From positions 907-64,906 of the forward strand of contig JAYZFV010000056.1 of NCBI GenBank assembly GCA_036336595.1: a stretch of DNA of 64,000 nt, given 5' to 3'. This DNA is from Thermoplasmatota archaeon (GTDB taxonomy: Archaea; Thermoplasmatota; Poseidoniia; Poseidoniales; Thalassarchaeaceae). A model generated the notes under the pieces. The model was not told the DNA's origin, ran no database searches, and worked only from the letters and a program-made list of their open reading frames with translations. Position 1 is the first letter of the stretch; each line of letters starts with the position of its first letter. Made by a program: the position numbers and the translations under genes. Of this stretch, positions 2,449 through 43,677 are shown one piece after another.

Positions 2449-2524
2449 CGCACTCGCCCCTTTGTGGAGTGAATGAATTCAAGGACGCCCACACCCACGA
2501 TAGGCCGCAGCACGGGGTGATGCC

Positions 2525-5503: not shown

Positions 5504-5552
5504 GCGGGTGCCGGGCCAAGCCTTGAGAAGGCGCACCGCATGAGGGTGCCCG

Positions 5553-6308
5553 ATGTACCGCTCCGGCAACCCGGCGCTCAACGACTCGACGTTCGAGAAG
5601 GGCTCCTACCAGGGCGTCAACTGGTGGGACGACTACGAATCCAACCTGATGACCATCGAGGGCACCGCGGAGAAGACCGGGATCCTGCTCCTGATCACCG
5701 CGACGACCGCGCTCGCAACCGCATTCTCGATGCCGGACTCTCTTCCCCTGATCCTGGTCGGGGCCCTTGGCGGCTTCATCGTCGCGATGATGGTGATCTT
5801 CTCCGGCTCGATGAACCCGATGCTCATCTGCTCCTACGCCGCCTTGGAGGGCCTCGCCCTCGGGGGCATCACGTGGATCTTCGAAGTGGGCCTCGGGCTC
5901 CCGGGGATCGGCATCCTCGCTGCCCTCCTGACATTCCTCATCCTGGGGGTGATGATCGCGATATACAGGGCCGGGCTGATTCAGTGGGACAGGAACATGG
6001 CCATCGCGGTCTACTCCGCCCTGGGGGCGATCGTGCTGGTCTACCTCATCTCCATCATCGGGCTGTTCGTCGGCTTCGAGGTCCCGCACATCCACGGCTC
6101 GGGGCCGATCGGCATCGCGTTCTCCCTGTTCGTCGTCGGGATCGGAGCGCTGTGCCTCGTCGCGGACTTCGACTTCATCGAGAAGGGGGTGGAGAGGGGC
6201 GCGCCCAAGCAGCTCGAGTGGCGGGCCGCCTTCGGGCTCATGGTCACGCTGGTATGGCTCTACCTCGAGATCCTCAAGCTCCTAGCGAAGCTGGCCGCGA
6301 GGCGTTAG
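5553..6308 (+). CDS. Multi-pass membrane protein, Bax inhibitor-1/YccA-like family (tentative)
   Basis: 251 aa with ~7 predicted TM helices. N-terminal SGNPALNDSTF is reminiscent of actinobacterial BI-1/YccA-family proteins. Family assignment is from memory only. Confidence 0.4.
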   Translation: MYRSGNPALNDSTFEKGSYQGVNWWDDYESNLMTIEGTAEKTGILLLITATTALATAFSMPDSLPLILVGALGGFIVAMMVIFSGSMNPMLICSYAALEGLALGGITWIFEVGLGLPGIGILAALLTFLILGVMIAIYRAGLIQWDRNMAIAVYSALGAIVLVYLISIIGLFVGFEVPHIHGSGPIGIAFSLFVVGIGALCLVADFDFIEKGVERGAPKQLEWRAAFGLMVTLVWLYLEILKLLAKLAARR

Positions 6309-6311
6309 GCG

Positions 6312-7553: not shown

Positions 7554-7589
7554 GTTCAGACTCACGAGAGTCTAGGCCCACTAGGTGGG
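7554..7589. terminator. Two tandem perfect hairpins between convergent genes (AGACTC-ACGA-GAGTCT; CCCAC-TAG-GTGGG)
   Basis: Read directly at 7558-7573 and 7577-7589, in the 46-nt gap after the kynU stop and before the stop of the minus-strand BNR gene. Function as terminators is inferred. Confidence 0.3.
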
Positions 7590-7598
7590 TCTGCTACG

Positions 7599-9059: not shown

Positions 9060-9104
9060 GTAATCCCGGCTGAGCCCTGCCTACATCAGTCCAACGGAGC
9101 CGCG

Positions 9105-10622
9105 TCAACTCAGGAGCAGCGTCGAGTTCCCCCCGGGTGGGAGGGGCTCCAGGTAGCCCAAGTCCCCGTACAGCGCCGGCCCCTCCGTCAGGGTCCCTAT
9201 CACCGCCTCCTCGAAGCCAGCGGCGTTGTGCGCGAGCGCGATCCAGGGCCTGCCCCCGTCATCGAGCTCGACGTCGATGAAGTCCCCGAAGCCGCCGCAC
9301 CGTATGTTGCCGCAGTCCGGGCCGGTGTCCAGGGGGTCGTCGGGGTGGTTGACCGCCACGCTCGTGATCAGCGGGCGCTCGGCGAAGGCGTCGGTCATGA
9401 TCGCCATGTAGCCGGACCAGCCGCCCGTGCTGGTGTTCTCGTCGTAGTTGCTCGACTCGCCTATGTAGCCCAGGACGACCCTGCCCTCGGCCCCGGCGAA
9501 GACCGTCGGAAAACCCGTCTCGTTGACCCCTGGGGCTGCCACCATCATCGGCGGGCTCCAGGTCTCGCCCTGGTCACGGGAGTTGGCGTACCACGGCATC
9601 AGGTCGTCCCCGATCCAGGTCGCGTGGACGTTGCCCCCGTCGTCCACCGCCGTCGCGACCTCGTGCGAGTGCCACCCGTCCTGCATGCCGACCTCGGTGG
9701 TGATCGTGTGCTCGCTCCAGGAGTACCCGCCGTCCAGAGAGCGGTAGACCGCCGGGCCCTCGCACGACGGGTTGCCCCGGTAGACTGCCCCGTCTATCCC
9801 CCCTGCCACGTGGCCGTGCAGGCCCGAGCACTGCGGGAAGCTGCTGCTCGGGTAGCCCAGCCTCTGGACGTCCCACGACAGCCCGCCGTTGAGAGAGCGC
9901 GAGCACTGGGCGCCGAGGGCTGGGGACCCGGTGTTGATGCAGTACACGTAGATGACGTCGTGGAACGCCGTGACCCCCGGAGGCGGGGGCATCGAGGCTA
10001 TGCTCTGGTGGTCCTGCGTGACGTAGTAGCCCTCGACGGGGTAGGGGATGCTCCAGCTGTCGCCGTCGTTGTCGGAGTACTCGACGAACATGGCGGCCAG
10101 CGCGTGCATGTCGAACTTGACCAGCCTGTCCGTGAACTTGTCGACGTAGATGTACGGGTCGTTCGAGTTGGGCGTCTGCCCCGAGTCCTCGTCGATCTGT
10201 CCGAAGGGGCCTACGTCCTCCCAGGTCTGGCCATTGTCCCTCGAGCGGATTATGTGCGTGCCGTCCCCGAGGCCGTTCCACTGGGTGAAGAATATGGCAC
10301 CAGAAGAGGTGACGCCGATGGTCGGCTCGAAAGTGTCGTACCCTGTCCCGTAGTAAGTGGCGTTGGCGAAGTACGGCGTGCTGTTGCCAGTCAGGTCGGC
10401 AGTGATGTTGGCCGCAGAGACCGCCCCTGCGCTGGTGGCGTCCACCGGCCAGGGCTCGGCGACCGTCCCAGGATAGTGGTACCACGTGGTGATTGGGACC
10501 TGCTGGTCGAATTCGAAGGCCCCCCTTTCCTCCTCGGTGACCTCCTCGTCCTCCCACCACATGCACCCCGTCGCCATCGAGCTCAGCATCAGCAGGGAGA
10601 GCAGTTGAGCGGTCTTGGCCAC
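9105..10622 (-). CDS. Secreted BNR/Asp-box repeat lipoprotein, paralog 2
   Basis: GTG start at 10622 (VAKTAQLLSLLMLSSMATGC signal with lipobox-like Cys), just after the stop of the upstream epimerase; an alternative ATG lies at 10589. Asp-boxes SDNDGDSWS, SLNGGLSWD, SLDGGYSWS, SRDQGETWS. Clearly paralogous to 7599-9059. Confidence 0.55.
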   Translation of the reverse strand: MAKTAQLLSLLMLSSMATGCMWWEDEEVTEEERGAFEFDQQVPITTWYHYPGTVAEPWPVDATSAGAVSAANITADLTGNSTPYFANATYYGTGYDTFEPTIGVTSSGAIFFTQWNGLGDGTHIIRSRDNGQTWEDVGPFGQIDEDSGQTPNSNDPYIYVDKFTDRLVKFDMHALAAMFVEYSDNDGDSWSIPYPVEGYYVTQDHQSIASMPPPPGVTAFHDVIYVYCINTGSPALGAQCSRSLNGGLSWDVQRLGYPSSSFPQCSGLHGHVAGGIDGAVYRGNPSCEGPAVYRSLDGGYSWSEHTITTEVGMQDGWHSHEVATAVDDGGNVHATWIGDDLMPWYANSRDQGETWSPPMMVAAPGVNETGFPTVFAGAEGRVVLGYIGESSNYDENTSTGGWSGYMAIMTDAFAERPLITSVAVNHPDDPLDTGPDCGNIRCGGFGDFIDVELDDGGRPWIALAHNAAGFEEAVIGTLTEGPALYGDLGYLEPLPPGGNSTLLLS

Positions 10623-20278: not shown

Positions 20279-20878
20279 ATGGACACGGGCCTCCTCATCG
20301 CGACTCTAGCCTTCATCATCCCGATGTGTTTCACTCCGGGACCCAACAACGTCCTGTGCGCCGCACATGGATCGCAGCACGGTCTGCGAGGGACCCTGCC
20401 ATTGATTGCTGGAATGGCGATAGGCTGGTCTACTCTGGGCCTCTTCGTCGGAGGAGCGACCGTCTTCATTGAGGAGAACGAGTCGTTCTTCGAATTACTG
20501 ACCTACATCGGAGCTGCATACAACGCCTATTTGTCATACAAGGTGGCGACCGCGATCCCGCTGGCCGACGATAATCAGGACGACGAACGACTTGGCACCA
20601 TGACGGGACTTGCCCTTCAGGTTGTCAACGGCAAAGCCTGGATTCACTTCCTAGTTCTGATGACTACCTTCGGGAGCCTATTCGGGCCCGGGTTTGCCGC
20701 CAAGGCGATGCTAGTACTGCTAAATCTGGTCTTCGGGCTTCCCGCAGTAATCACCTGGGCCTCATTCGGGACCTTGCTGAGGAGGGCCTTCAGCTCCCCG
20801 CAGTCAGCCACCAAGCTCAACCGCGCGATGGGGCTGTCCCTGTTCGCGGTCGCAGTGTGGCTTGTCCTCCCTCACTAG
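20279..20878 (+). CDS. LysE/RhtB-family amino-acid exporter
   Basis: 199 aa, 6 TM. N-terminal FTPGPNN motif. Confidence 0.65.
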   Translation: MDTGLLIATLAFIIPMCFTPGPNNVLCAAHGSQHGLRGTLPLIAGMAIGWSTLGLFVGGATVFIEENESFFELLTYIGAAYNAYLSYKVATAIPLADDNQDDERLGTMTGLALQVVNGKAWIHFLVLMTTFGSLFGPGFAAKAMLVLLNLVFGLPAVITWASFGTLLRRAFSSPQSATKLNRAMGLSLFAVAVWLVLPH

Positions 20879-20935
20879 CCCGATCAGCATTGATGAGGTG
20901 TTGGCATTCATAGCCAAGTCGGGATATCACGCATC

Positions 20936-21586
20936 GTGAGGCTACTTATCAGGGCGGTCTTGGTCGCGATGACCCTGCTATGCATGTCAGGCTCGGCCAT
21001 CGCTGAACCATACACCATCTCCGGCTCTGTGGCATACCAAAACGACACTCCCGTGCAGTACGAGGAGGTCGAGGTCGACTGCGCGACGTACGAGTACGAC
21101 TGCCACGCCTTCGAGGGTCAATCGGCGCCGACCGATCTCAGTGGGGCGTACGACCTCACCATCGAGGTGGACGAGAGCTACGACGGCGCCGAGTTGCTGC
21201 TTACCATCCGCGGCGAATCGTTCGGCCACGTAATCAACCTCTCAGCAGCTGACCAAACCTCCGAAGGCTATGTGATAGAGCAGGATATCATCCTAGTCCA
21301 AAACTCCCCAGCAGGGCCGATTTTCACTGGCCTTGGTTGCTCGACGCTCGTCTTTTCAGTCGCTTTCATTCTGATTCTCATTCGTACGGTTCGCAGGTAT
21401 TCAGTGGGGGATCAGGGGGAAAGATTCGTTGGACATAAGACCAACCCGATCACCGATTGCCCGGTGTGCGAGGGCAGGCTCCCCCGCCATCTGCTTACTC
21501 GCCACTTGATAGTCGAGCACGAGATTGACGCGCACGAGGCGGCAGAGATGGCAGGGGGTTTGATGCATGAGCCGAGTCGCGATTGA
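20936..21586 (+). CDS. Signal-peptide protein with one TM helix and a C-terminal cytoplasmic C2H2-like zinc finger
   Basis: 216 aa. Signal peptide MRLLIRAVLVAMTLLCMSGSA, ~125 aa acidic ectodomain, TM IFTGLGCSTLVFSVAFILILI, then CPVCEGRLPRHLLTRHLIVEH (C-x2-C-x11-H-x4-H). The stop abuts the tRNA-Leu 3' end. Confidence 0.4.
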   Translation: MRLLIRAVLVAMTLLCMSGSAIAEPYTISGSVAYQNDTPVQYEEVEVDCATYEYDCHAFEGQSAPTDLSGAYDLTIEVDESYDGAELLLTIRGESFGHVINLSAADQTSEGYVIEQDIILVQNSPAGPIFTGLGCSTLVFSVAFILILIRTVRRYSVGDQGERFVGHKTNPITDCPVCEGRLPRHLLTRHLIVEHEIDAHEAAEMAGGLMHEPSRD

Positions 21587-21671
21587 TGGTGCAGAGGACA
21601 GGATTCGAACCTGCGAAGCACTACGCACTGGGACCTCATCCCAGCCCCTTTGACCGCTCGGGTACCTCTGC
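21587..21671 (-). tRNA. tRNA-Leu (anticodon GAG), type II with long variable arm, CCA encoded
   Basis: Reverse complement reads GCAGAGGTACCCGAGCGGTCAAAGGGGCTGGGATGAGGTCCCAGTGCGTAGTGCTTCGCAGGTTCGAATCCTGTCCTCTGCACCA. It has a 7-bp acceptor stem, the GAGCGGTCAAAGG D-arm typical of tRNA-Leu, anticodon loop AT-GAG-GT, a long variable arm and a GGTTCGAATCC T-arm. Confidence 0.85.
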
Positions 21672-21721
21672 TCGGGTCCGGACTGGAACGCCGGTCGTAT
21701 TTCACGGTGGCGAACTTTGGG

Positions 21722-22624
21722 CTAGAAGTGGATTCCGTGCTTCGCTGCCATCGGAGGGGCCCGGCCCGTCTTGGCGTAGTAGAAGAGCGAGGCCCTGTTC
21801 ACCGCTTCGACGGTGGAGAAGAACAGTACGGCAAGGAGGAGCGCGACGACCATTATCACACCACCCAGAACGGCCCCCGCGTCATTGATCATCATGAACG
21901 GGAAGCAAATAGCGAAGATCAGGAGTATCACGATAGTCATCAGCAGGCCAGTCCCGACGTGCGAGGAGACGTCCTCCCCCCAGGTCTTCTTGAACATCTT
22001 AGGACTCCGACTCATCCCTTCAAACACCCCTGCCCTCTCCAGCACAATTACTGGAATCACGAAGAAGGTCACTATCCACCAGGCAATTCCGAAGATGAAC
22101 GACGCCAAACCGGCCACAATCCTCACGGGAGGAGCAGCGTCCTCGCTCTTTGAGATCCCCTCGAGAATCTGCAGGAACAACCCGACCGTTCCTGCTATGA
22201 CCCCCCAAACCAGGATCTGTGGAAGGCACTTCATAGCCTGGCCTATGCCGTAGGAGAAGCTAGGGTTCGTCCCAGCGGTGAGGCGCTCGTAAGCGCTAGC
22301 GATGATGGCTGCGTTCCAGAAGACTGTGATCACCGAGACGGTCAGATAGAAAACGAACCAAATAACCAAGTGGCCCGCCACGAACTCCCCCCCACCTTCA
22401 CATCCTTCTCCAACGCAGTCGGAGTTAGGGTCAATCGCATCCAGTCCGATCGACCCGGCAAGAGCAGCACCGATGGCCACTAGCGAGAATACGGCCGACA
22501 GGAAGGTGTAGACCATCAGCTCCGGATCAGCCCTCACCACAGCCATGCCAAGCCTGGTCATCTTCCATCCTCTCGAGATTCTCTCAGCGAAGCCGATCCT
22601 GTTCCTAGACGTACTCATCATCAT
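21722..22624 (-). CDS. Multi-pass membrane protein of unknown function
   Basis: 300 aa, ~6 TM helices. No motif I can place. Confidence 0.4.
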   Translation of the reverse strand: MMMSTSRNRIGFAERISRGWKMTRLGMAVVRADPELMVYTFLSAVFSLVAIGAALAGSIGLDAIDPNSDCVGEGCEGGGEFVAGHLVIWFVFYLTVSVITVFWNAAIIASAYERLTAGTNPSFSYGIGQAMKCLPQILVWGVIAGTVGLFLQILEGISKSEDAAPPVRIVAGLASFIFGIAWWIVTFFVIPVIVLERAGVFEGMSRSPKMFKKTWGEDVSSHVGTGLLMTIVILLIFAICFPFMMINDAGAVLGGVIMVVALLLAVLFFSTVEAVNRASLFYYAKTGRAPPMAAKHGIHF

Positions 22625-22650
22625 GATTCAATCCCACGCTCCACCAGTCT

Positions 22651-23112
22651 TCAAGATTGACCCGACGCACCGGTCTTCACAGCATCCCCTGGCCTAACTA
22701 CGCCCTCCTCGAGCACTGCTGCGCACCATCTGGACCAGCCGGGGAAGCGCCCTTCCTCGATCCTCCCAGAGTCTCCATCGGAGAACTGGTCCTCGATCAC
22801 GTGACACGGCGCGGTGGGCCCCGTCAGCTCAAGCAGGGTCTCGCCGACTTGCAGCCTGTCGCCCACTGCGAGTGAGCCCCAGTCGAGCCCCTCGATGGTT
22901 ATGTTCTCGCCTAGGCTGCCGGGTGCGGCGACGGGGTGCCCCTCCTCGCGCAGACCCTCTATCCTCTCGAGCGAGTAGATGATGACGGCCCTGCGCGTGC
23001 TCCTCCGCTTGTCGCCCTCTATGCCCTCTGTGCCCAGCCTCGCCGCACTGAGAGGCAGCTTGGGGACTCCCCCTCCCTCGCGAACGCAGACTGAGTGCAC
23101 GCAACCGGTCAT
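22651..23112 (-). CDS. MOSC-domain protein (YiiM-like)
   Basis: 153 aa. GDKRRSTRRAV, GENITIEGLD and the conserved Cys (TAPCHV) of MOSC beta-barrel proteins. Confidence 0.65.
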   Translation of the reverse strand: MTGCVHSVCVREGGGVPKLPLSAARLGTEGIEGDKRRSTRRAVIIYSLERIEGLREEGHPVAAPGSLGENITIEGLDWGSLAVGDRLQVGETLLELTGPTAPCHVIEDQFSDGDSGRIEEGRFPGWSRWCAAVLEEGVVRPGDAVKTGASGQS

Positions 23113-24038
23113 GAGCGTCCCTCCAAGAATGGGAGCGGCACATCAAGCCTCTCGACCATCTCCCTGTAGCGGCCTCCCAAGCCCGGGTCTGGGGACTCCA
23201 GATTATGCTTCCAGTAGCGCCAGCCCGCGATTGCCAGAGTTGCATACCTATGCATGTCCGGCAGCGCGGCCAGTTCGGCGGCATTCAACTCGCGCACTGA
23301 TTCGTAGCCTTCGACCAGAGCCCCCCAACGCTCCCCGATAGGAGCATTGTCATGCCATCCGAAGCCTACGAACGACATCGCCAGATCGAACACGAGCGGT
23401 CCAATCCACGCCTCTTCAAGGTCTAGGATTGCAACGACGTCCCCCCCACTACCGATGACATTGTCCGGAAAGAGGTCGCCGTGGAGGATTCCACTAGGCA
23501 GGTCTTTGGGAATTCGTTGCCGCAGGCCCGCAGACTCCTTGCGCAGAACATCCAAGAAAGGCGACCATGAATTCCGCTCCTCAGCTAGAGCAAACACCTC
23601 CTCGAAGAACTCGAACCCCATCGTATAGACTTCGGGAAAGCAATCTCCGATTGGCACGAGATGCATTCTAGCCTGTACCTCGCCGAGGCTTCTGAGGGAA
23701 TCAGCATCCGAGCCGAGCAGCCCACCCTCATAATGAGGCAGGAGGGTCCAAGCTACCCCATCCCGCTCGACGAGCCTCTCACCGCCTTCCAGCCTGAGGG
23801 GTACCGGTGTCGGTATCCCGTGGTCGTCTAGGTGTGAGTGCCGCAGGATTACCCGGGCCACCTCATCCACAGTGTTCGCATCCCAAGCCTTCAGTACGAC
23901 ACTAGTCCCGTCGGTGAGTGAAAGAAGGAAGTTGGTATTGTCCCAACCCCCCTGCATTGGCGTCATTGACGAAACTTCTGGCATGCCCGACAGAGAGAGC
24001 AGCCACGCTGCATCCCCTTCGTCAACCTCAATGGCCAC
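23109..24038 (-). CDS. Aminoglycoside/choline-kinase-like phosphotransferase (APH family, homoserine kinase type II-like)
   Basis: 309 aa. Catalytic HGDLFPDNV and downstream ILDLEEAW of the APH/ChoK kinase fold. Confidence 0.6.
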   Translation of the reverse strand: MAIEVDEGDAAWLLSLSGMPEVSSMTPMQGGWDNTNFLLSLTDGTSVVLKAWDANTVDEVARVILRHSHLDDHGIPTPVPLRLEGGERLVERDGVAWTLLPHYEGGLLGSDADSLRSLGEVQARMHLVPIGDCFPEVYTMGFEFFEEVFALAEERNSWSPFLDVLRKESAGLRQRIPKDLPSGILHGDLFPDNVIGSGGDVVAILDLEEAWIGPLVFDLAMSFVGFGWHDNAPIGERWGALVEGYESVRELNAAELAALPDMHRYATLAIAGWRYWKHNLESPDPGLGGRYREMVERLDVPLPFLEGRS

Positions 24039-24115
24039 GGCATAACGCTAACACTGCCTCATATTGCTTCTTCTCTCCAGTTAGGACTTAACATATCCAC
24101 AGCCACGCAACCCGC

Positions 24116-25057
24116 ATGCGAGCCATCCTGCCGCAGCCAAACCTGCTCATGGTCGGGGCCCCGAAGTCCGGAACGACGTCACTTTTGATGTGGCTCAGAA
24201 GCCACCCAGAGGTCTACCACCCGTGGCTCGGAGCCGGGTCGGAGGCAGTCGAGAGCGGATTCCTAATAGCAGGACCTACCGAAATCCCCATTTCACCATC
24301 TAGACCAAGGGGAACGCTCCTGTTACCACACGATACCGATGTAGATCGCTACAAAGGGGAGCCTTGGATAATTGACAAGTCCCCGCAGCACCTATACTCA
24401 AGCCGGGCGTTGGAGACAGTACGCGATTTGATGCCCGACGCAAAGGTCATCATAACCCTCAGGGATCCCTACGATCTTCTAATCAGCCAATATATGCAAA
24501 TGTGGAAGGGCATGAATTTCGACATCCCATTCGAGGAGCTATACGATATGATGCAGACCCAAGGATGGGAGGCCGATACCGAGATTGCAGAGACCTGGGC
24601 CTTTCTCACATATCCCCGGTATTCCGAATTTGTTCGTGCCTGGGTATCCGAACTTGGCTCCGAAAGGGTGAGGGTGGTGACGCTGGCCTCAATCGCAGGT
24701 AATGCAACGGGTGTGCTGCGGGAAATTTCTGAGTGGCTAGAAATTAGCCCTAGCAAGATGCCCACCAATCCCCCGGTGAGGAACACTAGGGGCAAACTAT
24801 CCAACACCCCGATCAGGAAGTTCCTGAGGGAACCTCCCAAATGGGTGTTTTCCTCTGCCAGGCTGTTGTTACCTAGCAGATCTGCTAGGAAGGCGCTTCT
24901 AGATCCCATAAGGAGGAGGGGATGGAAGCACGTTCCAGCGGACAAACCCGTGGTCCCACCAGAAATGGAGAGGGAAATCAGAGCGAGGCTGAAGGAGGAT
25001 ACCGAGTTCTTCGAGGCCCTCGATTCGCTTTTACCCAGCGGCACGACGATCGGCTAG
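24116..25057 (+). CDS. PAPS-dependent sulfotransferase (Sulfotransfer_1/3-like)
   Basis: 313 aa. 5'-PSB motif GAPKSGTTSL and 3'-PB motif RDPYDLLISQY. Confidence 0.7.
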   Translation: MRAILPQPNLLMVGAPKSGTTSLLMWLRSHPEVYHPWLGAGSEAVESGFLIAGPTEIPISPSRPRGTLLLPHDTDVDRYKGEPWIIDKSPQHLYSSRALETVRDLMPDAKVIITLRDPYDLLISQYMQMWKGMNFDIPFEELYDMMQTQGWEADTEIAETWAFLTYPRYSEFVRAWVSELGSERVRVVTLASIAGNATGVLREISEWLEISPSKMPTNPPVRNTRGKLSNTPIRKFLREPPKWVFSSARLLLPSRSARKALLDPIRRRGWKHVPADKPVVPPEMEREIRARLKEDTEFFEALDSLLPSGTTIG

Positions 25058-25971
25058 CGTTCGAACGCTTCTAACCAATGGCCGGTCTGGAATCCGGTTA
25101 GCTTCTCAAACCTCTCTAAGTCCGGCACAACCTCTCCTTCACAGGTTTGGTAGTGACCCTTAGTCAGCGATGAATCCTCGCCTTTCCTACTTATGAGGGG
25201 GAGGCCATAGATGTTCAGTGATCGTTTCTGCAGGGGCTTCGCAAGCACACCCCTTACCGAATTCGGAATAATGCGTACTGCGGCTTTGAAGGCCCTTCCC
25301 AGAGGAGTGACTCCCCTCCTACCTAGTGAGGCGTTCGCACTCTTCTCAGACAGGAAATCGTATTCGAATTCTCCTAAACCGAAATGAGCATTGATTTCCC
25401 CTAGAACAACATCGGGCGCAACCCTCATCCTCTTGCTATCGATAATCAGAAAACGCCCTCTTTCGAATATCTCTAACCAGCGTGCCATCGAAGCTGACCA
25501 TATTGAGTCGTCCTTCAGCCTCTGGTCTCCCCATGCGGTCTCGAAGTCGGACCAATCTGCTCCATGCCTACGGTCTGCCATGTTGTCCCTGACCATCTTC
25601 CAGTGACTGAAAGCCCTCTCAACCGGCTCCCTTAGGCAAACCACAAAGCGGGCTTCAGGATTGATTTGGAGCACCCTGTTTGGGGCCAGAGGGCAGGAGA
25701 ATGCATGTACCGAACCATCGACTCTGAAACCATTGCCTGAGAAAGCCCGCCGATATTCATCTAGATCCGGGTCGGATGCGTCCCTTCCAAATGTCCCACG
25801 ATGGCTGGCCAAGATATTCGGCTCCTTGGGTTCGGAGAAGTCAATGCCGGGGTTCTGCGTAAGGACCCCCGCCAGCCAAGTTGTCCCACACTTGGGCATC
25901 CCTAGCAGAAAACCATCCACCATGGGCCTTTCTTCCACGGTTGCAAACGTCCACAGGGCCTTATGACTCAA
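25054..25971 (-). CDS. PAPS-dependent sulfotransferase
   Basis: 305 aa. 5'-PSB GMPKCGTTWL and 3'-PB LREPVERAFSHW. Confidence 0.7.
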   Translation of the reverse strand: MSHKALWTFATVEERPMVDGFLLGMPKCGTTWLAGVLTQNPGIDFSEPKEPNILASHRGTFGRDASDPDLDEYRRAFSGNGFRVDGSVHAFSCPLAPNRVLQINPEARFVVCLREPVERAFSHWKMVRDNMADRRHGADWSDFETAWGDQRLKDDSIWSASMARWLEIFERGRFLIIDSKRMRVAPDVVLGEINAHFGLGEFEYDFLSEKSANASLGRRGVTPLGRAFKAAVRIIPNSVRGVLAKPLQKRSLNIYGLPLISRKGEDSSLTKGHYQTCEGEVVPDLERFEKLTGFQTGHWLEAFER

Positions 25972-26023
25972 TCGGACGCCCCTTTCATCAAGATAGTGAA
26001 ATACATTCGGCTTTGCACCCCCA

Positions 26024-26830
26024 TTGAGGCAGATGTATAGGCTGATTTGGTTTCAGCACGTTCACAAGGCTGCAGGCAGCGCGGTGATCAACCAAGCGAT
26101 AGCCAACGGTGAGACCCTCTACCCAGTCCACGAGAACGGAAATCCGTGCTCCTCAACCCGGGAATTGCTCCCAATCTGGGATTACGAAGATAACGAGTTA
26201 TTGGAATTCATCGATGACTGCCAGTCTAAGGGTGTTACTTTCGTTGCAACAGAGTGGGGCTCGCCAACATTCCGAATCCTGAATTCAGATTCCAGAGTAG
26301 TGCTGGTAACTTGTATCAGGGAACCATGGAGCAGACTGGTTTCCAACTACAACTATGACTACTACTTGGGATTCTCCAGCGCGCGCGCTCTTTCTGAATA
26401 CATGATCGGGGAACATAGGATTAAGTTGGACAATTACCTAGTGAGGGTCTTCTCCGGAGATTCCGACCACGAGGGAAAAACCCTCGGACTAGAATCGGTA
26501 AATTCATCGATAACAAACCTGCAATTATTCGATTTGGTTCTAATTACTGAAAGAGAGGGCGATCTGGGAAACCATCTCTTCGAGGCGCTGGGTTGGGAGG
26601 CTAAAATAGTGGATAGCCACTCCACTTTCGGCAACCTCTGGACGCTCTCAACGTTGATACGCCAACTCAGACTGCTATCGGCTGTGAGATACCTTTTGAG
26701 GGTGAAACGCCAAGTCACAGAAGGAGACAGGAGAGATTTCGAAGAGAAATCGAGCCTAGAGTTGGAACTGTACAGTAGGGTGAACGACCTGCAAATTCGT
26801 GGTCGCATTCACCCTCTCAATTCCCAATAA
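26024..26830 (+). CDS. Sulfotransferase family 2-like protein
   Basis: 268 aa. FQHVHKAAGSAV (cf. hiPKtgGT) and CIREPWSRLVSNYNY (cf. RdPveRlvSay) match the Sulfotransfer_2 PAPS-binding motifs. Confidence 0.55.
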   Translation: MRQMYRLIWFQHVHKAAGSAVINQAIANGETLYPVHENGNPCSSTRELLPIWDYEDNELLEFIDDCQSKGVTFVATEWGSPTFRILNSDSRVVLVTCIREPWSRLVSNYNYDYYLGFSSARALSEYMIGEHRIKLDNYLVRVFSGDSDHEGKTLGLESVNSSITNLQLFDLVLITEREGDLGNHLFEALGWEAKIVDSHSTFGNLWTLSTLIRQLRLLSAVRYLLRVKRQVTEGDRRDFEEKSSLELELYSRVNDLQIRGRIHPLNSQ

Positions 26831-27425
26831 ATTACAACAGCAATCAGGGGGCAATGGCATCTTTTCCTTCTTTTCCAGAGATCACCGCAAGAATCTCTTG
26901 AGGTTTATGCCAAAGAACTCAATATGCGCGGAGATAGGGGTTTGGAAAGGCGACTTCTCGCATAGGATACTGGATATCGCGAAACCAAGGAAACTCCATC
27001 TCATCGACCCCTGGGACTTCCAACCAGATTTCCCACACCGCTGGTATGGGGGCACCAGAGCGAGAAGCCAAGAGGAAATGGATGCGGTGTTCGAAGGCGT
27101 CCGAGAGAGATTCAGCAGCCGCATTGAGGTGAAGTTTCACAGGGACTACTCCGACAAGGCCGCGTCGGAATTCCCAGATGAGTACTTCGACTGGGTCTAT
27201 ATCGACGGCAATCACGACTACGAGTTCGTCAAGCAGGATCTAGAGGCATTCTTGCCCAAGGTGAAGGACGGCGGCTTCATTACAGGAGACGACTACTTGC
27301 AGCCATCTCCCGACAATTCGAAGTTCCTCCCCGTGAAAGAGGCCGTATCGGAATTCGTGCGAGAATATCCCGTGGAGTCACTCAAGTTGTTCGGCACTCA
27401 ATTCATCATTAGGAAGGCGGGCTGA
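26799..27425 (+). CDS. Class I SAM-dependent (sugar O-)methyltransferase, Methyltransf_24/TylF-like
   Basis: 208 aa (an alternative start lies at 26907). EIGVWKGDFS SAM-binding loop and WVYIDGNHDYEFVKQDL motif of TylF/CmcI-type O-methyltransferases. Confidence 0.55.
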   Translation: MVAFTLSIPNKLQQQSGGNGIFSFFSRDHRKNLLRFMPKNSICAEIGVWKGDFSHRILDIAKPRKLHLIDPWDFQPDFPHRWYGGTRARSQEEMDAVFEGVRERFSSRIEVKFHRDYSDKAASEFPDEYFDWVYIDGNHDYEFVKQDLEAFLPKVKDGGFITGDDYLQPSPDNSKFLPVKEAVSEFVREYPVESLKLFGTQFIIRKAG

Positions 27426-27458
27426 GAAAACCCTGCAATTTGACATGCATCGCTCGCT

Positions 27459-28295
27459 CTATTCGATTGGGCTGAGGATGAAATGGAAGGCCTTTTTCGG
27501 CTCTCCCAGAGTAGCCTTCCTCAACCTCCAGAACGCAGCTAGGGACCAGGCCCTGGCCCACAAGGAAAAGGACTGGATTCTCGTCAGCGCCTCAACATCG
27601 CCTGGTTCGTGCACCCTCCTCATCTCACGCCTCAGTTTTCGCAGATCTCCATTCATCACGCTCTTCCGAGAGATCATGCCTGCAGCACACTCCACGAATT
27701 TCTTCGGGTTGCAATGGTACAGCAACTGTTCGGATCGAGGGTAGGCACCATAGACCCCCCCGTGAATTCCAATGGGCTCTGGATGATGCACTTTGCAGTT
27801 TGGCGCCCATACCATTCTTTGCCCAGAATCGATTACCCTCCAAGCCAGATCCGTGTCCTCCCTGTGGAGGTAGTACCTCTCATCGAAGCCTCCAACCTGC
27901 TCGAGTATGTCCCTCCTCACAACCATGTTTGCCGTCTTGAACCGATCCCACTTGAACCGATTCGGGGGGTTGAAGTCCACCTTCTCTCCAGCCAGGTTAG
28001 TGGTTGTCATGCCGCCCTCTATTCCACCCACACTCTCGGTTTCCATGATTGACTGTATGACCTCAATCCAATTCTCTTGAGCGATGCAGTCGTCATCGAT
28101 GAAGGCGACAAACTTTCCCGAGCCACGCCTCCAACCTATGTTTCGGGTTTTTCCCGGACCTTGATCGGTTTCGGAATCGTCAACCACCTCTATCGAACGA
28201 GCGGGCAGGGTCTGCCGCCCCAGAGACTCCAAGCACGCAGCTAGGGCAACCGGCCTCCTGAAGGTGGGAATGACAACATCGACTTCAGAATCCAC
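27459..28295 (-). CDS. Family 2 glycosyltransferase
   Basis: 278 aa. VVIPTFRRP N-terminus and DxD motif FIDDDC. Confidence 0.75.
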   Translation of the reverse strand: MDSEVDVVIPTFRRPVALAACLESLGRQTLPARSIEVVDDSETDQGPGKTRNIGWRRGSGKFVAFIDDDCIAQENWIEVIQSIMETESVGGIEGGMTTTNLAGEKVDFNPPNRFKWDRFKTANMVVRRDILEQVGGFDERYYLHREDTDLAWRVIDSGQRMVWAPNCKVHHPEPIGIHGGVYGAYPRSEQLLYHCNPKKFVECAAGMISRKSVMNGDLRKLRREMRRVHEPGDVEALTRIQSFSLWARAWSLAAFWRLRKATLGEPKKAFHFILSPIE

Positions 28296-28366
28296 AGCGG
28301 CTCGAGGGCGAGCATCGTAATTAGTCTCGCGTACAGTTCAAGAATCGGCGATGACACCCACGCGTC

Positions 28367-28693
28367 GTGATAGACCTCGCGTCGATGGTTCTGATGGGTT
28401 TCCAAGACGACATAGTCTTGGTATTCGGTGACACCGTCGGTTGGCTGATTGGTCACCTAATCTTACTTGGTGCCCTCGCTATGGCAGTCGTGGCAATACG
28501 TGAGAGGGATCACATCCTCAATCAGTCCGGGTTCGACCGCAGCACCATTAGGGACGCCTCGTTGGTCGTCGGACTGACCTTGGTGCAGTACCAAGTATTC
28601 ACTTCGACGTTCGGATTCGACCCCTTGGCTTCGTTAGCACTGGCGGTACTATCGAGCTTCACTATTCGCTGGCTCGTTAACGTCTTGGGATAG
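28367..28693 (+). CDS. Small membrane protein (3 TM), unknown function
   Basis: 108 aa, hydrophobic. ORF only. Confidence 0.25.
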   Translation: MIDLASMVLMGFQDDIVLVFGDTVGWLIGHLILLGALAMAVVAIRERDHILNQSGFDRSTIRDASLVVGLTLVQYQVFTSTFGFDPLASLALAVLSSFTIRWLVNVLG

Positions 28694-28696
28694 GCA

Positions 28697-29656
28697 CTAA
28701 CGCCTCCTCAGAACGATTACCAAAGCCACGATCAGAATGACTAGGATTACGGATCCACCAATCACGTAAGGCTCCTCGTCCTCGGAGATGCCGAGGTCCT
28801 CGAGAAGGGTGCCATTCTGACCAAACCCGATGTCAGTCACGCCCGACTCCTTGGCATTCACCGTCAAAGTCAGTGAATCCTCCTGCTGGCACGATTGTGC
28901 AGTAACTGTCCTCTCATCGACGATTACGAGGCACCCATTCCACGGATCAGCTAGGTTCACAGGGGTCGTTACTAGGAACTGGCAATTGCTCATGCCGTTA
29001 CCGTTTGAGATTTGAACCTCGCAATCCTGCTCGCTCACGTCATTGAAGCCAGAGGGCCACATCTCCTCCTGGCTCGATCCATCGCTAACTATGTGCAACT
29101 CCACCTTGAGGCCCTGGTCTCTGTTGCTCTCACAGGAGTATGAGGCGCTGACTGAGACGTCCTCCCCGGCCTCAACCGTCAACGAGCTTTGGCCATAAGC
29201 AACTCCACAGTCGATGAACTCAGGTACGATGGCGTCTAGAGAGTAGGTTTCGTTCTCGGTGATGAATCCCACTGGTATTCCTCCCACAGCACTCGTGACC
29301 TGCGCAGAGACGGTCAACTCGTAAGTACCGACTTCGACGCTTTTGTCGACGAGCATGGTGACTTCGAAACTCACCGTGGCACCCGATTCCACAGTGATAG
29401 AATTCGGCCCGTCAGCATCTATAGAAGCAGTATCGTAGCCAATCGTGACGTCTTCGGAATACGCGGTCGGATTCTCCACCGTGCAGTGAACCTGAGCGCT
29501 ATCCGTAGTGGAAGAGAACTCGAACTCAATCTGCGACTCGACGCAATCGAGGTTGATGGAGGGGAAGACCTGATCCTGGGCCGAAGCGACCGGGGCAGCC
29601 AGACTCGCCGCAAGCAGAACTGCGACCCAGAGAGCTCTCGATAGCCACCCCTCCAT
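28697..29656 (-). CDS. Secreted acidic cell-surface protein with C-terminal TM anchor
   Basis: Start chosen at MEGWLSRALWVAVLLAASLAAPVASA signal peptide (29656), because the longer ORF would overlap the divergent chaperonin gene. C-terminal anchor VIGGSVILVILIVALVIVLRRR. Lower GC than the backbone. Confidence 0.45.
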   Translation of the reverse strand: MEGWLSRALWVAVLLAASLAAPVASAQDQVFPSINLDCVESQIEFEFSSTTDSAQVHCTVENPTAYSEDVTIGYDTASIDADGPNSITVESGATVSFEVTMLVDKSVEVGTYELTVSAQVTSAVGGIPVGFITENETYSLDAIVPEFIDCGVAYGQSSLTVEAGEDVSVSASYSCESNRDQGLKVELHIVSDGSSQEEMWPSGFNDVSEQDCEVQISNGNGMSNCQFLVTTPVNLADPWNGCLVIVDERTVTAQSCQQEDSLTLTVNAKESGVTDIGFGQNGTLLEDLGISEDEEPYVIGGSVILVILIVALVIVLRRR

Positions 29657-29764
29657 GTCTGATTCGCCACTCCGCTCTGCCATAGATATTCGCACCTCCG
29701 GCTCGGCAACCAAGCGAATTCGCTGCTCAAAGCATTCATGTCGCCCCCTCTCCGCGAATAGACC

Positions 29765-31333
29765 ATGAGCGAGGGTGCAGACCGGCCCAAGGTCGTCATC
29801 GTCCCTGAGCACACCAAAGTCACAAGCGGCACCGAGGTTCAGGAGAAGCTAATCATCGCCGCCCGTGTATTCTCCGACCTGCTCAAGCCGACATTCGGCC
29901 CAAGGGGACTCGACAAGATGCTCTACAAGACCGACGGCGCAACCGCGGTCACGAACGACGGCGCTAAGATCGTCGCCGAGCTCCTCGTCAGGCACCCAGC
30001 GGCGAAGATGATGGTCTCGATGGCCAACTCTCAGGAGGAGGATTGCGGCGATGGCGTTACCACCACGATGCTAATCTGCGGCTCACTGCTGATTGAGGCT
30101 AACACCCTGCTGCGCAAAGGGCTCCACCCGCTTACCCTCGTTGACGGCTACGCCCTCGCCCTCGAGGCGGCTCGTGAGCAGATGAGTGCCGATGAACGAG
30201 AGTCAGACAAGCCCGGTCTAGTGGCCGTGGCCGAGACAGCCCTTCGCGGCAAGGTCGCCGAGTCCGCTCTGGACCTCTTCGCCCCGATGATCGTCGAGGC
30301 GCTCTCCATTGTCTCAAAAAATCGCGAGGGCGCGGGCGCTGAGCACGTCACAATGCACAAGACAGGCACCGGTGGACTGAGAGACTCTCGCTTGGTCAGC
30401 GGTATCATCGTCAACAGGCGGGTGATAATGGATGGACTTCCCAACGACTTGAGTGACGCCAAAGTCGCCTGCCTAGACGGGGACCTCAAGATGAGGGAGC
30501 TGACTAGGGACATCGAGATCAAGATCACCAATGCAGGCGAACTGGACTCTTTCGTCGAAGCCGAGCACGAGCGCAGGGATGCGATTGCCGCGAGCGTCAT
30601 CGGCAGCGGAGCGAGCGCCGTGTTATGCTCCGGTGAGATCGACAGGGACATCCTACACCGTCTTGCAGATTCGGGCGTCCTCGCCGTCGGCGAGTTGGAC
30701 TCAAGTGAGATACGCAACGCATCCGAGGCTCTGGGTGCGAGGTTGGTCGACTCGCCCTTGGATCTTGAGGCCTCGGATTTGGGTCACTGCGGCCGACTCT
30801 CGTGGGAGAGGCGAGAGGAATCAGACAGCGTAGAGGACGTGATTCGTATCGAGAACTGCCCAAGCCCCGCCATCGTTACCATAGAAGTGGGAGGGGCCGG
30901 CGAGACTGGAACTGAGGAGGTCATTCGCGGGCTGCACGACTCCTTACGAGCAACCTCGCTGGCATTCGATGAGGAACTGCTGCCCGGAGCAGGTTCCATC
31001 CACGCTAGGATGGCCCACGCGGTTAGAAGGGCATTGGAGTCTCAGGGAGGCCGGGAGAGGCTCGCCATGGAGGCGTTTGCCAGAGCACTTGAGACGATAC
31101 CCGCAACCCTATCGGAAAACGGAGGCGACGATCCCCTAGACCGCGTGCTGGAGCTCCGAGCCGCTGCGAGGGAGGGAACCGCCCCGGTGGGAATTTCCCC
31201 AGAAGGCAAGACTTGGGAGGTCAATGGCGTCTTGCACCCTCGTTCGGTCATAGAGAACTCTCTCGTCTCCGCTACCGGGACCGCGATGAGCATGCTCCGA
31301 ATCGATCAGGTCATCTCGGCACGAGGCGACTAG
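29765..31333 (+). CDS. Group II chaperonin (thermosome/CCT family), divergent paralog
   Basis: 522 aa. GPRGLDKML, VTNDGAKIV and GDGVTTTMLICGSLL correspond to the GPKGMDKML, ITNDGATIL and GDGTTTAVVLAGELL motifs, with atypical substitutions. Confidence 0.7.
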   Translation: MSEGADRPKVVIVPEHTKVTSGTEVQEKLIIAARVFSDLLKPTFGPRGLDKMLYKTDGATAVTNDGAKIVAELLVRHPAAKMMVSMANSQEEDCGDGVTTTMLICGSLLIEANTLLRKGLHPLTLVDGYALALEAAREQMSADERESDKPGLVAVAETALRGKVAESALDLFAPMIVEALSIVSKNREGAGAEHVTMHKTGTGGLRDSRLVSGIIVNRRVIMDGLPNDLSDAKVACLDGDLKMRELTRDIEIKITNAGELDSFVEAEHERRDAIAASVIGSGASAVLCSGEIDRDILHRLADSGVLAVGELDSSEIRNASEALGARLVDSPLDLEASDLGHCGRLSWERREESDSVEDVIRIENCPSPAIVTIEVGGAGETGTEEVIRGLHDSLRATSLAFDEELLPGAGSIHARMAHAVRRALESQGGRERLAMEAFARALETIPATLSENGGDDPLDRVLELRAAAREGTAPVGISPEGKTWEVNGVLHPRSVIENSLVSATGTAMSMLRIDQVISARGD

Positions 31334-31379
31334 GGCTGTGGACGCGAACCATTCAAGACCGCCGCACTCACGCGAAATC

Positions 31380-32969
31380 ATGGTCTCGCCGCGCGCCCTG
31401 CTGAGCGTCTGGGATAAGTCAGGAATCGAGGACCTCGGAGTGGCTCTCGCAGGCATGGGCTGGGAGTTGCTGTCCACAGGTGGAACTGCACGCGCACTCA
31501 GTGAATCGGGACTGGAAGTCAAAGAAGTGAGCGAAGACACCGGCCACCCGGAGGCCTTCGATGGCCGCGTCAAGACGCTTCACCCCGCCGTCCACGGCGG
31601 AATCCTCGCACGTCGTGATCACAAGGAAGACATGGACACCCTCTCAGATCTAGGATACGGAACAATCGACCTTGTGTGCGTCAATCTGTATCCCTTTGAA
31701 GCGGTCGCCGCGCGCGATCCCCCCGCGCCCATTGACGAACTCATCGAGATGATCGATATCGGCGGGCCGACCATGATTCGTTCAGCCGCCAAGAACCACC
31801 GCGACGTGCTGGTGCTCACCCATCCCGACCAGTATCCCGGAGTGCTGGACGCTCTCGCCACCGCTGACGGCAGCCCATCGGGAGTCGACGACGAGGCCCG
31901 AGAGGAGTTGGCGCTCGCCGCCTACCAGAGGACTACGGCCTACGATGCGGCGGTCTCCAACGAACTTGAGGGCAGGTTCGCAGACTCGGACGTGCCCTCT
32001 CGCATCCTCCTCGCATCCGGTTTGGGAACCAGACTGCGCTACGGCGAGAACCCCCACCAGCCCGCCGCGTTCTACCCCGAATCCTCAGTATCCGGACCAT
32101 CGGGCCTCGCAGCAGCTGCCCAGCACTGCGGGAAGGAACTATCGTACAACAACTACCTCGACCTCGACGGTGCCCTGCGCCTCGGACGTTCCCTCTATGC
32201 CACCTACTCTGGCGAGTCCCATTGCTGCATCCTCGTCAAGCACACCAATCCCTGTGGCGCAGCTGTCGACGTCACTCAGATCGACGCGTGGCGAAACGCA
32301 CTGGCAAGTGATTCCGAGAGTGCGTTCGGCTGCGTCATCGCCTTCACTAAACCGGTAGAAAAGGGGACTGCTGAGGCGATAGGGGGCCATTTCTTCGAGT
32401 GCATGATCGCGCCGGGCTACGAACCGGGGGCACTGGACATCCTCTCCGCCAAGAAGAACCGCAGGATTCTCACTCTAGACCCGTTCAAGCCGAGGGTAGA
32501 TGAGGTCAGGCTGCGACAGATCGATGGAGGCTGGCTGTCCCAGATGCAGGGTCCACCAAAGATTGACTGGGACGAGGTGAGTTGTGTAACCGAGCGACAG
32601 GTCGGCACCCCTGAGGTCACTCTGGCCCGTTTTGGCTCAGCGGTTCTAGCAGAGGTCAAGTCTAACGCGATCATTCTGGTTGCGAGGACAGAGACAGGCT
32701 GCGCGACGGTAGGCGTTGGCCCGGGCCAGACCAGCAGGGTCGAGGCGGTGAGGATCGCTGCCCATAGGGCGAGCGGGCGAGCACAGGGATCCATGATGGT
32801 CTCGGATGCCTTCTTCCCGTTCAGGGATGGCATCGATGCGGCTCACGAGGCCGGTGTGGCCGTCGTGGTACAACCAGGCGGCTCGGTGCGTGACCAGGAA
32901 TCGATAGACGCAGCCAACGAGCACGGCATGGCCATGCTCCTCACTGGAACCAGACTGTTCCTCCACTGA
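31380..32969 (+). CDS. purH: Bifunctional AICAR transformylase / IMP cyclohydrolase
   Basis: Internal ATG at 31380. [17 protein letters not shown]-like N-terminus and an AICARFT C-terminal domain. Confidence 0.85.
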
Positions 32970-42969: not shown

Positions 42970-43677
42970 ATGATTGTTTCACATAAGAACCGGTTCATCT
43001 TCATCAAAACGAGGAAGACTGCTGGAACAAGCATCGAGATAGCCCTTGCTAAATTCTGCGGTCCCGACGACATCATCACCAGACTATCTGCCTCGGAAGA
43101 GCAGAATAAATTTGACCTTGGATACAGAGGTTCGCAAAACACGCGTATTCCATTGAATCAGTATAGGAAGTGGGACCTATGGTTCTGGTTGCGCGGTGGC
43201 GGCCCTGCGCACCATTTCAACCATACGTCCGCCTCTCTGATCAAAAGGAGAATGGACTCAGAGTCCTTCAGAGAGTACTGCAAATTCTGTGTGGTTCGTA
43301 ACCCATGGGATAGGGCAGTGTCCATTTACTATTGGAGGAAATACAGGGCCAAGGAAGCACTACCTGAGAACGTCAATTTTACCGAGTTTCTTTCTAGTTC
43401 ACCAACCGAGGTCCTCACTAATAGCGGACTCTATCTAGTTGATGGTGAACCGGCAATAGATCGGTTCATCAAGTTCGAGAATCTTGAGATGGAACTTGCT
43501 GAGATCCTCGAGGAAATGGGTTTGGAAATGGTGGAACTTCCGCATGCCAAAGGGAACACTCGTAAGACCAAAGAACATTACTCAATCATGTTCGACAACG
43601 ACTCGATTGACCTCATTGCTCGTATTTGCAATTGGGAGATCGAGTATTTCGGGTATGAGTTTGAGGATTTGAGGTGA
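42970..43677 (+). CDS. Sulfotransferase family 2-like protein (fourth in the window)
   Basis: 235 aa. FIFIKTRKTAGTSIE and VVRNPWDRAVSIYYW match the PAPS 5'-PSB and 3'-PB motifs. Local GC ~47-50%. Confidence 0.6.
   Translation: MIVSHKNRFIFIKTRKTAGTSIEIALAKFCGPDDIITRLSASEEQNKFDLGYRGSQNTRIPLNQYRKWDLWFWLRGGGPAHHFNHTSASLIKRRMDSESFREYCKFCVVRNPWDRAVSIYYWRKYRAKEALPENVNFTEFLSSSPTEVLTNSGLYLVDGEPAIDRFIKFENLEMELAEILEEMGLEMVELPHAKGNTRKTKEHYSIMFDNDSIDLIARICNWEIEYFGYEFEDLR

Follow-up and report, generated by a model that had tools for sequence, protein, structure and literature searches.

Replacement-type flexible genomic islands carry genes for outer glycans between divergent, syntenic flanking genes, have a lower guanine-plus-cytosine (GC) content, owe their diversity to recombination and lack mobility genes (PMC8430335, PMC4535781). 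In Halobacterium salinarum, sulfation and methylation act on an oligosaccharide (a tetrasaccharide) bound to dolichol phosphate (DolP) before it is flipped (PMC11980604, PMC13308652), and Agl30 and Agl31 of this organism, which have the sulfatase/alkaline-phosphatase fold, are the only experimentally identified archaeal N-glycan sulfotransferases (PMC11980604). Here we describe a compact, sulfotransferase-rich gene slot in a 64,000-nucleotide stretch of archaeal DNA (the window; positions 907 to 64,906 of contig JAYZFV010000056.1, assembly GCA_036336595.1), in which five genes for three sulfotransferases, a methyltransferase and a glycosyltransferase lie inside a hypervariable block that begins at a tRNA-Leu gene. 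The host is a Marine Group IIb (MGIIb) archaeon of the Thalassarchaeaceae: its thermosome subunit is 96% identical to the closest match, from a Thalassarchaeaceae metagenome-assembled genome (MAG), and all 80 loci retrieved by a thermosome search belong to the Poseidoniales (Marine Group II, MGII). MGIIb archaea are among the most abundant planktonic archaea. To our knowledge, MGII are uncultured and nothing is known of their envelope from experiment.

We put at roughly 60% the probability that this locus is an MGIIb "glycotype" slot, whose five cytoplasmic enzymes tailor a strain-specific sulfated and methylated lipid-linked surface glycan and whose cassettes are swapped by recombination. The genes of the locus and its surroundings are:

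21587-21671, minus strand: tRNA-Leu (GAG), called by ARAGORN; left boundary of the hypervariable block
21722-22624, minus strand: DUF6159 multi-pass membrane protein (Pfam DUF6159, 94.6 bits); syntenic, hypervariable
22651-23112, minus strand: MOSC-domain protein (Pfam MOSC, 71.9 bits); conserved islet within the variable block
23109-24038, minus strand: APH-fold kinase, homoserine-kinase-like (Pfam APH, 100.8 bits); left anchor of the slot
24116-25057, plus strand: sulfotransferase ST1, Sulfotransfer_1/3 type (Pfam)
25054-25971, minus strand: sulfotransferase ST2, Sulfotransfer_1/3 type (Pfam)
26033-26830, plus strand: third sulfotransferase, ST3q, assigned by predicted fold and transitive homology to a Pfam-less Sulfotransfer_2 branch
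26799-27425, plus strand: S-adenosylmethionine-dependent methyltransferase, Methyltransf_24 (Pfam)
27459-28295, minus strand: soluble family 2 glycosyltransferase, GT2 (Pfam)
28367-28693, plus strand: 108-residue membrane protein without family match (hydropathy); right anchor of the slot
28697-29683, minus strand: secreted, C-terminally anchored acidic surface protein with two Ig-like domains (signal peptide, transmembrane segment, AlphaFold2 model)
29765-31333, plus strand: thermosome subunit
31338-32969, plus strand: PurH

ST1 and ST2 are convergent and overlap by 4 bp; the 3' end of ST3q and the start of the methyltransferase gene share 32 nt. The gene coordinates of the initial annotation agree with the open reading frame (ORF) map of 21.5-31.5 kb, and the alternating divergent and convergent arrangement it reported is right; it omitted the first gene of its own span, the APH-fold kinase.

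The variability of the block is most evident against L087, a metagenome contig with flanks 93-99% identical to the window. Nucleotide identity is 93-99% up to position 21664. In the next bin, which starts at 21665 beside tRNA-Leu, it is 0.65 (0.93 before), and it stays at 0.42-0.71 through 28264, save for MOSC (87-91% over 22565-23164, with 62-71% on both sides) and one APH bin (0.82); the methyltransferase region is unalignable (0.42-0.56). Bins that cover the small membrane protein gene and the surface-protein 3' end have 0.84 and 0.70, and identity is back at 0.94-0.97 from 28865 onwards. Between these sharp breakpoints L087 carries a cassette of the order ST-ST-ST3q-FkbM-GT2 with enzymes 55-70% identical at the amino-acid level, and L088 holds a third cassette version. 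The variable block thus spans 21.67-28.86 kb, as a 4.3-kb slot inside a 7.2-kb block, and starts at tRNA-Leu itself, not 1.4 kb away from it as was first proposed together with limits of 23109-29656. Furthermore, the block is not fixed core of the genome, as flanks of ~95% identity accompany another version of it. Because the same cassette, with an identical methyltransferase and the same gene order, is found in four independent assemblies, it is not an assembly chimera; L093 is 99.9% identical to the window over 27969-29288.

Identities to other relatives are mosaic: i) L001 is 91.8% identical in the right flank and 69.5% over 21657-26647; ii) L002 is 81% identical (the genomic level) from ST2 to the flank and 71% over 21587-24952 (tRNA-Leu to ST1); iii) the ST1-ST2 pair (24057-25975) is 89.1% identical to that of the distant lineage L036 against a background of 66-71%, and ST1 is 91% identical to its L036 counterpart at the protein level, compared with just 72% for the thermosome. 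On these comparisons, cassettes appear to be exchanged by recombination among MGIIb. 

At the tRNA-Leu edge two independent public contigs break off (L001 at window position 21657, L102 at about 21620), a hint of the kind expected where assemblers fail on polymorphic populations. A 0.7-kb segment at 20871-21586 contains an ORF (20936-21586) that abuts the 3' end of tRNA-Leu and encodes a protein with a signal-peptide-like N-terminus, a single transmembrane segment and a C-terminus rich in Cys and His. L087 has this segment (89% amino-acid identity), but L002, L003 and L089 lack it, their LysE gene lying almost directly beside tRNA-Leu.

A census of slot content covered 42 MGIIb loci, one per species, that have the APH and small-membrane-protein anchors beside thermosome and PurH, with clustering of the slot ORFs and Pfam assignment. 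Slot length, taken between the genes for the APH kinase and the small membrane protein, is 1.3-5.2 kb. A glycosyltransferase (GT4 or GT2) is present in 38 of the 42 slots; the remaining four hold a protein of ~350 residues (cluster c11), for which no Pfam family was found even at E<=1. One to three sulfotransferases occur in 23/42 slots; they represent six or more sequence families, with several clusters of Sulfotransfer_1/3, two of Sulfotransfer_2, Sulfotransfer_4 and the ST3q family. Such frequency is at odds with the view, taken initially, that these enzymes are sparse. Methyltransferases are found in nine slots, and the minimal slot is a GT4 alone. The architecture ST-ST-ST3q-methyltransferase-GT2 is common to L087, L001 and L089. 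At the methyltransferase position the window carries Methyltransf_24 (26465-27664), these three relatives a FkbM/Methyltransf_21 enzyme on the opposite strand (L001 5218-6072; L087 4642-5493; also L089), others a Methyltransf_12/25 type (L008, L094 3835-4506, L097), and L088 none (3800-4188). By these family assignments the position is modular, being filled by one of three unrelated families or left empty, and an interchange of unrelated methyltransferases at one cassette position is of interest for glycan-tailoring enzymology. Taken as a whole, the gene content (one glycosyltransferase, 0-3 sulfotransferases, 0-1 methyltransferase) points to a terminal tailoring module that would act on a pre-existing glycan.

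In one MGIIb clade (L056, L060-L063) a class-III aminotransferase, a GT4 and a pyridoxal-phosphate (PLP)-dependent PALP enzyme replace the sulfotransferases (L062 2614-3876, L056 6379-7743), which hints at decoration with amino sugars or amino acids. A trio of two sulfotransferases and a GT2, related to ST1, lies at L082 7038-9766 of another MGII genome, with TFIIB and ribonucleotide reductase genes on its two sides, so the module can also reside away from the thermosome locus.

The initial annotation took the block to be compositionally foreign and acquired, which would mean that a distant donor recently supplied the whole pathway island and that it entered in one piece near tRNA-Leu. Base composition is indeed not uniform. 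GC content is 54.0% over 23109-29656 and 52.7% over the five enzyme genes (24116-28295), with a lowest 1-kb bin of 48.3% at 26-27 kb (the sole bin that low in the span), compared with 59.4% in the left flank (10.6-23.1 kb) and 61.2% in the right (29.8-34.1 kb), and with just 56.6% over 34-64 kb. The whole of 10.6-64 kb averages 57.3%, and among its 4.18-kb windows (mean 57.5%, sd 1.7) the enzyme block is the lowest, the next minimum being 54.1%; its tetranucleotide correlation with the rest of 10.6-64 kb, 0.68, is likewise the lowest there. The GC dip is thus real and the deepest in 10.6-64 kb, yet it amounts to ~5-8 points rather than the 10-12 estimated by eye, i.e., about half the depth. 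Beyond composition, an origin outside MGIIb would fit a block that begins at a tRNA gene and a ST3q family that also occurs in a few bacteria at ~40% identity. 

Several lines of evidence argue the other way: i) no integrase or transposase was found by Pfam among the ORFs of 20.9-29.8 kb, as first reported, no att-like direct repeats beyond chance flank the block, and the 3' end of tRNA-Leu is found just once in the window with up to three mismatches allowed, so that the block differs from a tRNA-targeted integrative element, which would bring an integrase and a duplicated tRNA-end repeat; ii) the slot occupies the same position in 42 MGIIb species and its GC content follows that of the host over 0.40-0.63 (r=0.88), lying below the GC of thermosome plus PurH at 43 of 43 listed loci (mean difference -4.4 points); iii) homologues of ST1 are all marine-metagenomic, and the sole named one is euryarchaeal; iv) the APH kinase, the small membrane protein and the surface protein, all inside the originally proposed span, are vertically conserved; v) viral contigs were considered as a vector of the ST3q family and rejected, since they gave a single match of 22% identity, in a giant-virus MAG. 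A foreign import is therefore very improbable and already largely refuted. Given that integrase and att repeats are missing and slot GC tracks host GC, the block is, on present genome comparisons, a small replacement-type flexible "glycotype" island recombining within MGIIb.

Elsewhere in the window the composition varies further. An abrupt step lies at ~10.6 kb: the first 10.6 kb have 67% GC, and their tetranucleotide deviation (1-10600) exceeds that of the sulfotransferase block. GC at third codon positions (GC3) is 0.93-0.96 in the genes at 2.5-9.1 kb vs 0.57-0.82 elsewhere in the window; the genes of this part encode UvrA (2525-5503), a Bax-inhibitor-like protein (5553-6308), a kynureninase-like protein (6312-7553) and an unknown protein (7599-9059). 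The second-lowest GC stretch (50600-54900, 54.1%) encodes an NTPase (51513-52094) and a 673-residue protein (52225-54246) that contains a restriction-modification methylase domain of the Eco57I type.

The enzyme content of the slot bears out a module for sulfation, methylation and glycosyl transfer by Pfam, fold and motifs. ST1 scored 60.6 bits with Pfam Sulfotransfer_3 and 34 bits with Sulfotransfer_1, and ST2 scored 40 and 33.5 bits respectively, all above cut-off (gathering scores: Sulfotransfer_3 27, Sulfotransfer_2 22, TylF 23). Alignment to the bacterial sulfotransferase 3rnl placed the 5'-phosphosulfate-binding (5'-PSB) and 3'-phosphate-binding (3'-PB) motifs at GAPKSGTTSL and LRDPYDLLIS in ST1 and at GMPKCGTTWL and LREPVERAFS in ST2. 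In the Protein Data Bank (PDB), ST1 matched 3rnl (6.5e-14) and heparan sulfate 3-O-sulfotransferase (3-OST), while ST2 matched 3rnl, 3-OST and NDST; public gene calls give ST2 a later start codon (289 residues). The methyltransferase scored 71.6 bits with Methyltransf_24 and 22.1 bits with TylF, slightly below the cut-off of 23. GT2 scored 49.7 bits with Glycos_transf_2. Four of the five enzymes thus pass Pfam thresholds, and the third sulfotransferase stays below. Hydropathy analysis found no hydrophobic or transmembrane segments and no signal peptides in the five enzymes, which are therefore predicted to act in the cytoplasm.

For ST3q, no Pfam or NCBIfam model reached threshold, with Sulfotransfer_2 at 14.9 bits (cut-off 22) over the 3'-PB region only. 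Its homologues start at the ATG at 26033, and it carries the motifs HVHKAAGS and IREPWSRLVS; K12 (in HxHKAAG), R96, P98, R101 and S104 are invariant in a 38-sequence alignment of the family. Profiles of the family matched heparan sulfate 3-OST among PDB sequences at a sub-threshold E of 0.4-0.6, and fold search and transitive hidden Markov model (HMM) links were therefore used. The AlphaFold2 model from the 38-sequence alignment had a predicted local distance difference test score (pLDDT) of 90.8, and the top four PDB matches of the model in Foldseek were all heparan sulfate 2-O-sulfotransferases (including 4ndz and 3f5f; E 6.5e-6 to 1.3e-5, probability 1.00, TM-score 0.53-0.57), followed by 3-O- and then 6-O-sulfotransferases. 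The 60 closest homologue clusters contain zero Pfam domains, and those with names are called "hypothetical protein" save one UniRef sulfotransferase family protein. When 1.84 billion cluster representatives were scanned with an HMM, 1,667 matched at E<=1e-3. Ten distant relatives were tested: P0206 and P0260 exceed the gathering score of Sulfotransfer_2, and another two match that model weakly. A profile-profile comparison of the family with true Sulfotransfer_2 slot proteins matched the 24-residue 3'-PB region alone, at a probability of 2%. The predicted fold, the invariant Lys, Arg and Ser residues and the transitive Sulfotransfer_2 links together support the sulfotransferase call, and the count of three sulfotransferases stands. 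On this evidence, ST3q is a divergent, unannotated branch of Sulfotransfer_2, and it adds a sizeable Pfam-less group of Sulfotransfer_2-like enzymes (~1,670 cluster representatives at E<=1e-3).

A fourth, solitary sulfotransferase gene is located at 42970-43677 on the plus strand, between peroxiredoxin and AsnC regulator/enolase genes. It scores 40.3 bits with Pfam Sulfotransfer_2 and, at 46.3%, has the lowest GC of any gene in the window. An identical protein occurs in 58 blocks of a public collection, with the same context in all four that were shown.

The slot sits in a conserved frame. Searches of related loci with the window proteins (tblastn) recovered the order DUF6159-MOSC-APH-[slot]-small membrane protein-surface protein-thermosome-PurH, and L084 shows the same frame. 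The DUF6159 protein is 62% identical to that of L087, while the genes flanking the L087 copy are 94-99% identical. The APH kinase adjoins the slot in 42 related loci and resembles type-II homoserine kinase, with homoserine kinase PRK05231 as its best NCBIfam match (112 bits, well under the equivalog cut-off of 271). It was considered as a sugar kinase of the pathway and rejected, as homoserine kinase models fit best, its neighbours are PLP enzymes of the Cys/Met/Thr type, and it is kept whatever the slot holds; on these grounds it is regarded as housekeeping. The 108-residue membrane protein has hydropathy segments at residues 15-46 and 89-108, gave no match in Pfam and NCBIfam scans, and is kept in position in most MGIIb loci at 39-87% amino-acid identity.

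The surface protein (start at 29683 and 328 residues, in agreement with public gene calls) has a signal peptide and a C-terminal transmembrane segment followed by RRR, and is strongly acidic (D+E 49 vs K+R 9). It scored 59.1 bits with the NCBIfam model "choice-of-anchor T", below the cut-off of 70, and its family was seen solely in unnamed marine-metagenome proteins and MGIIb loci. Eight Cys are invariant across the family, whose stalk also has a conserved N-G-T/S sequon; the AlphaFold2 model (pLDDT 79.5) has two beta-sandwich (Ig-like) domains, a transmembrane helix, and a disordered stalk in which the sequon lies. The part of the gene for the stalk and anchor (its 3' end) lies inside the variable block, with the right breakpoint near 28865. 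This protein had been described as the island's own; we rejected it as a cassette gene, as it is in the frame even where the slot is a GT4 alone, and together with the APH kinase and the small membrane protein it forms a syntenic frame independent of the slot enzymes.

Another ORF (62788-64000, plus strand, running off the window) encodes an acidic, Ser/Thr-rich protein with a signal peptide and no Pfam match. It has nine N-X-S/T sequons in 404 residues, i.e., 2.2 per 100 residues vs 0.2-1.0 in other window proteins, and is thereby a better N-glycoprotein candidate than the surface protein beside the cassette.

The most probable mechanism would run as follows: i) GT2 would add a sugar to a DolP-linked glycan at the cytoplasmic face of the membrane; ii) the three sulfotransferases would O-sulfate this glycan at different positions, using 3'-phosphoadenosine-5'-phosphosulfate (PAPS) supplied by CysDN and CysC; iii) the methyltransferase would O-methylate it; iv) the finished glycan would be flipped and attached to surface glycoproteins, for which the adjacent surface protein, with its family-conserved sequon, and the 62788+ protein are candidates. 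The DolP-bound topology is proposed by analogy with H. salinarum, the sole archaeon whose glycan sulfation has been dissected. As to the donor, cysDN and cysC are prevalent in MGIIb, and MGIIa are without them (Orellana et al., PMC6864105). Alternative cassettes (with other sulfotransferase families, GT4 in place of GT2, and the three unrelated methyltransferases) would be exchanged between MGIIb lineages via homologous recombination in the conserved flanks. The outcome may be a strain-specific surface chemistry, presumably under viral pressure as suggested by the glycan-island literature.

A number of points weigh against a lipid-linked glycan tailored by swapped cassettes. All comparison sequences are MAGs or metagenome contigs; L087 is called near-conspecific from just ~13 kb of flank. 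The cassette deviates no more than mildly in codon usage, with GC3 of 0.58-0.67 inside the range of housekeeping genes at 44-62 kb. GT2 matches the model of the Dol-P glucuronosyltransferase AglG (NF041394) with E 2.6e-13 and 50 bits where the cut-off is 440, and it matches NCBIfam models for exopolysaccharide glycosyltransferases and MftF about as weakly. The adjacent surface protein has just two sequons (0.63 per 100 residues). Moreover, AglB/STT3, a flippase, dolichol-pathway genes and PAPS-synthesis genes (sat, cysC, cysDN) were not found in the window, where Pfam scans covered 58 ORFs including every one of at least 600 residues (UvrA, MMPL, a TPR protein, the Eco57I-like protein and a BNR protein); the links to N-glycosylation and PAPS therefore draw on analogy and on the literature on other MGIIb genomes.

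The same variable slot could instead make a sulfated, methylated head group of a glycolipid, or a unit of exopolysaccharide or capsule, rather than an N-glycan. This would agree with the lack of AglB and other N-glycosylation genes nearby, the scarcity of sequons in the adjacent surface protein and the weak exopolysaccharide matches of GT2, and also with the best structural relatives of the sulfotransferases, which act on polysaccharides such as heparan sulfate. On the other hand, a single glycosyltransferase per slot with neither polymerase, exporter nor flippase suits glycan tailoring over polymer synthesis, and the conserved pairing of the slot with a sequon-bearing surface protein favours a glycoprotein; neither point is decisive, and we regard the glycolipid or polysaccharide product as rather unlikely. 

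That the enzymes modify a soluble small molecule (a metabolite, an osmolyte or a Nod-factor-like signalling oligosaccharide) and no surface structure is quite improbable. The solubility of all five enzymes would be in keeping with it, as would weak matches to the Nod-factor sulfotransferase NoeE and the typical role of TylF-like methyltransferases in natural-product tailoring. However, the NoeE scores are 17-20 bits against a cut-off of 500, the block is without a core biosynthetic gene, transporter or regulator, and strain-level replacement together with hypervariable DUF6159, small membrane protein and surface-protein stalk is a known signature of surface islands (PMC8430335). 

The tailoring of a lipid-linked surface glycan by an exchangeable MGIIb slot thus remains our preferred reading. 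It may be extended, more tentatively, to a possible though on balance doubtful proposal: that the MGIIb coat consists of strain-specific, heparan-sulfate-like sulfated and methylated glycans made by PAPS-type enzymes, and that cysDN/cysC mainly feed this "sulfation code", exchanged among lineages at a single recombination hot spot as protection from viruses. If true, MGIIb would sulfate glycans by a PAPS-type route that has yet to be demonstrated in an archaeon, the characterized archaeal enzymes being sulfatase-fold, and the cysDN/cysC genes of MGIIb, earlier read as assimilatory sulfate reduction, would gain a purpose in sulfation. The locus also suggests what function may lie behind the PAPS-synthesis genes that set MGIIb apart from MGIIa, by linking them to a surface phenotype. 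A testable prediction is that MGIIb surfaces bear sulfated, methylated glycans that differ among strains. The stretch from tRNA-Leu to thermosome could serve as a compact marker locus for MGIIb "glycotypes" and virus-host dynamics in metagenomes, and some of the sulfated organic matter in the sea could derive from sulfated surface glycans of archaea.

The searchable literature on sulfotransferases or glycosylation islands of MGII/Poseidoniales gave just a one-sentence remark (PMC6864105); a prior description of a compact, sulfotransferase-rich glycotype slot in MGIIb was not found there, while the replacement-island type itself is known. Like GI1 of Haloquadratum walsbyi and GI4 of Prochlorococcus, the MGIIb locus has a fixed position, conserved flanks and a content that differs between close relatives (PMC4535781, PMC8430335), and shares with them divergent conserved neighbours, lower GC, outer-glycan genes, an apparent diversification through homologous recombination and the lack of mobility genes. 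Unlike those islands of tens of kb, it is a 4.3-kb slot in a 7.2-kb block with a single glycosyltransferase. Sulfotransferases predominate in it, with as many as three in a cassette and six or more families overall, and its methyltransferase position is modular.

The enzymes compare with two described sets. As in the Agl30/Agl31 system of H. salinarum, several sulfotransferases and a methyltransferase are clustered with glycosyltransferases; there the enzymes act position-specifically on one glycan, and at least one of the sulfotransferases is cytosolic, as predicted for those of MGIIb. Unlike Agl30 and Agl31, ST1, ST2 and ST3q are P-loop PAPS-type enzymes with no sulfatase matches in Pfam, PDB or Foldseek, and unlike that aglB-anchored cluster, the MGIIb window lacks aglB and its host is a non-halophilic planktonic archaeon. 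The haloarchaeal framing of the initial annotation is thus misplaced, both for the host and for the type of sulfotransferase. With animal HS2ST, HS3ST and the NDST sulfotransferase domain, and with bacterial 3rnl, the three MGIIb enzymes have in common the fold, the 5'-PSB Lys and the 3'-PB Arg/Ser. ST3q is, however, just 10-17% identical to the heparan sulfate O-sulfotransferases and below the Pfam Sulfotransfer_2 threshold, and the MGIIb sulfotransferases are soluble, unlike the animal heparan sulfate enzymes with their Golgi type-II anchor.

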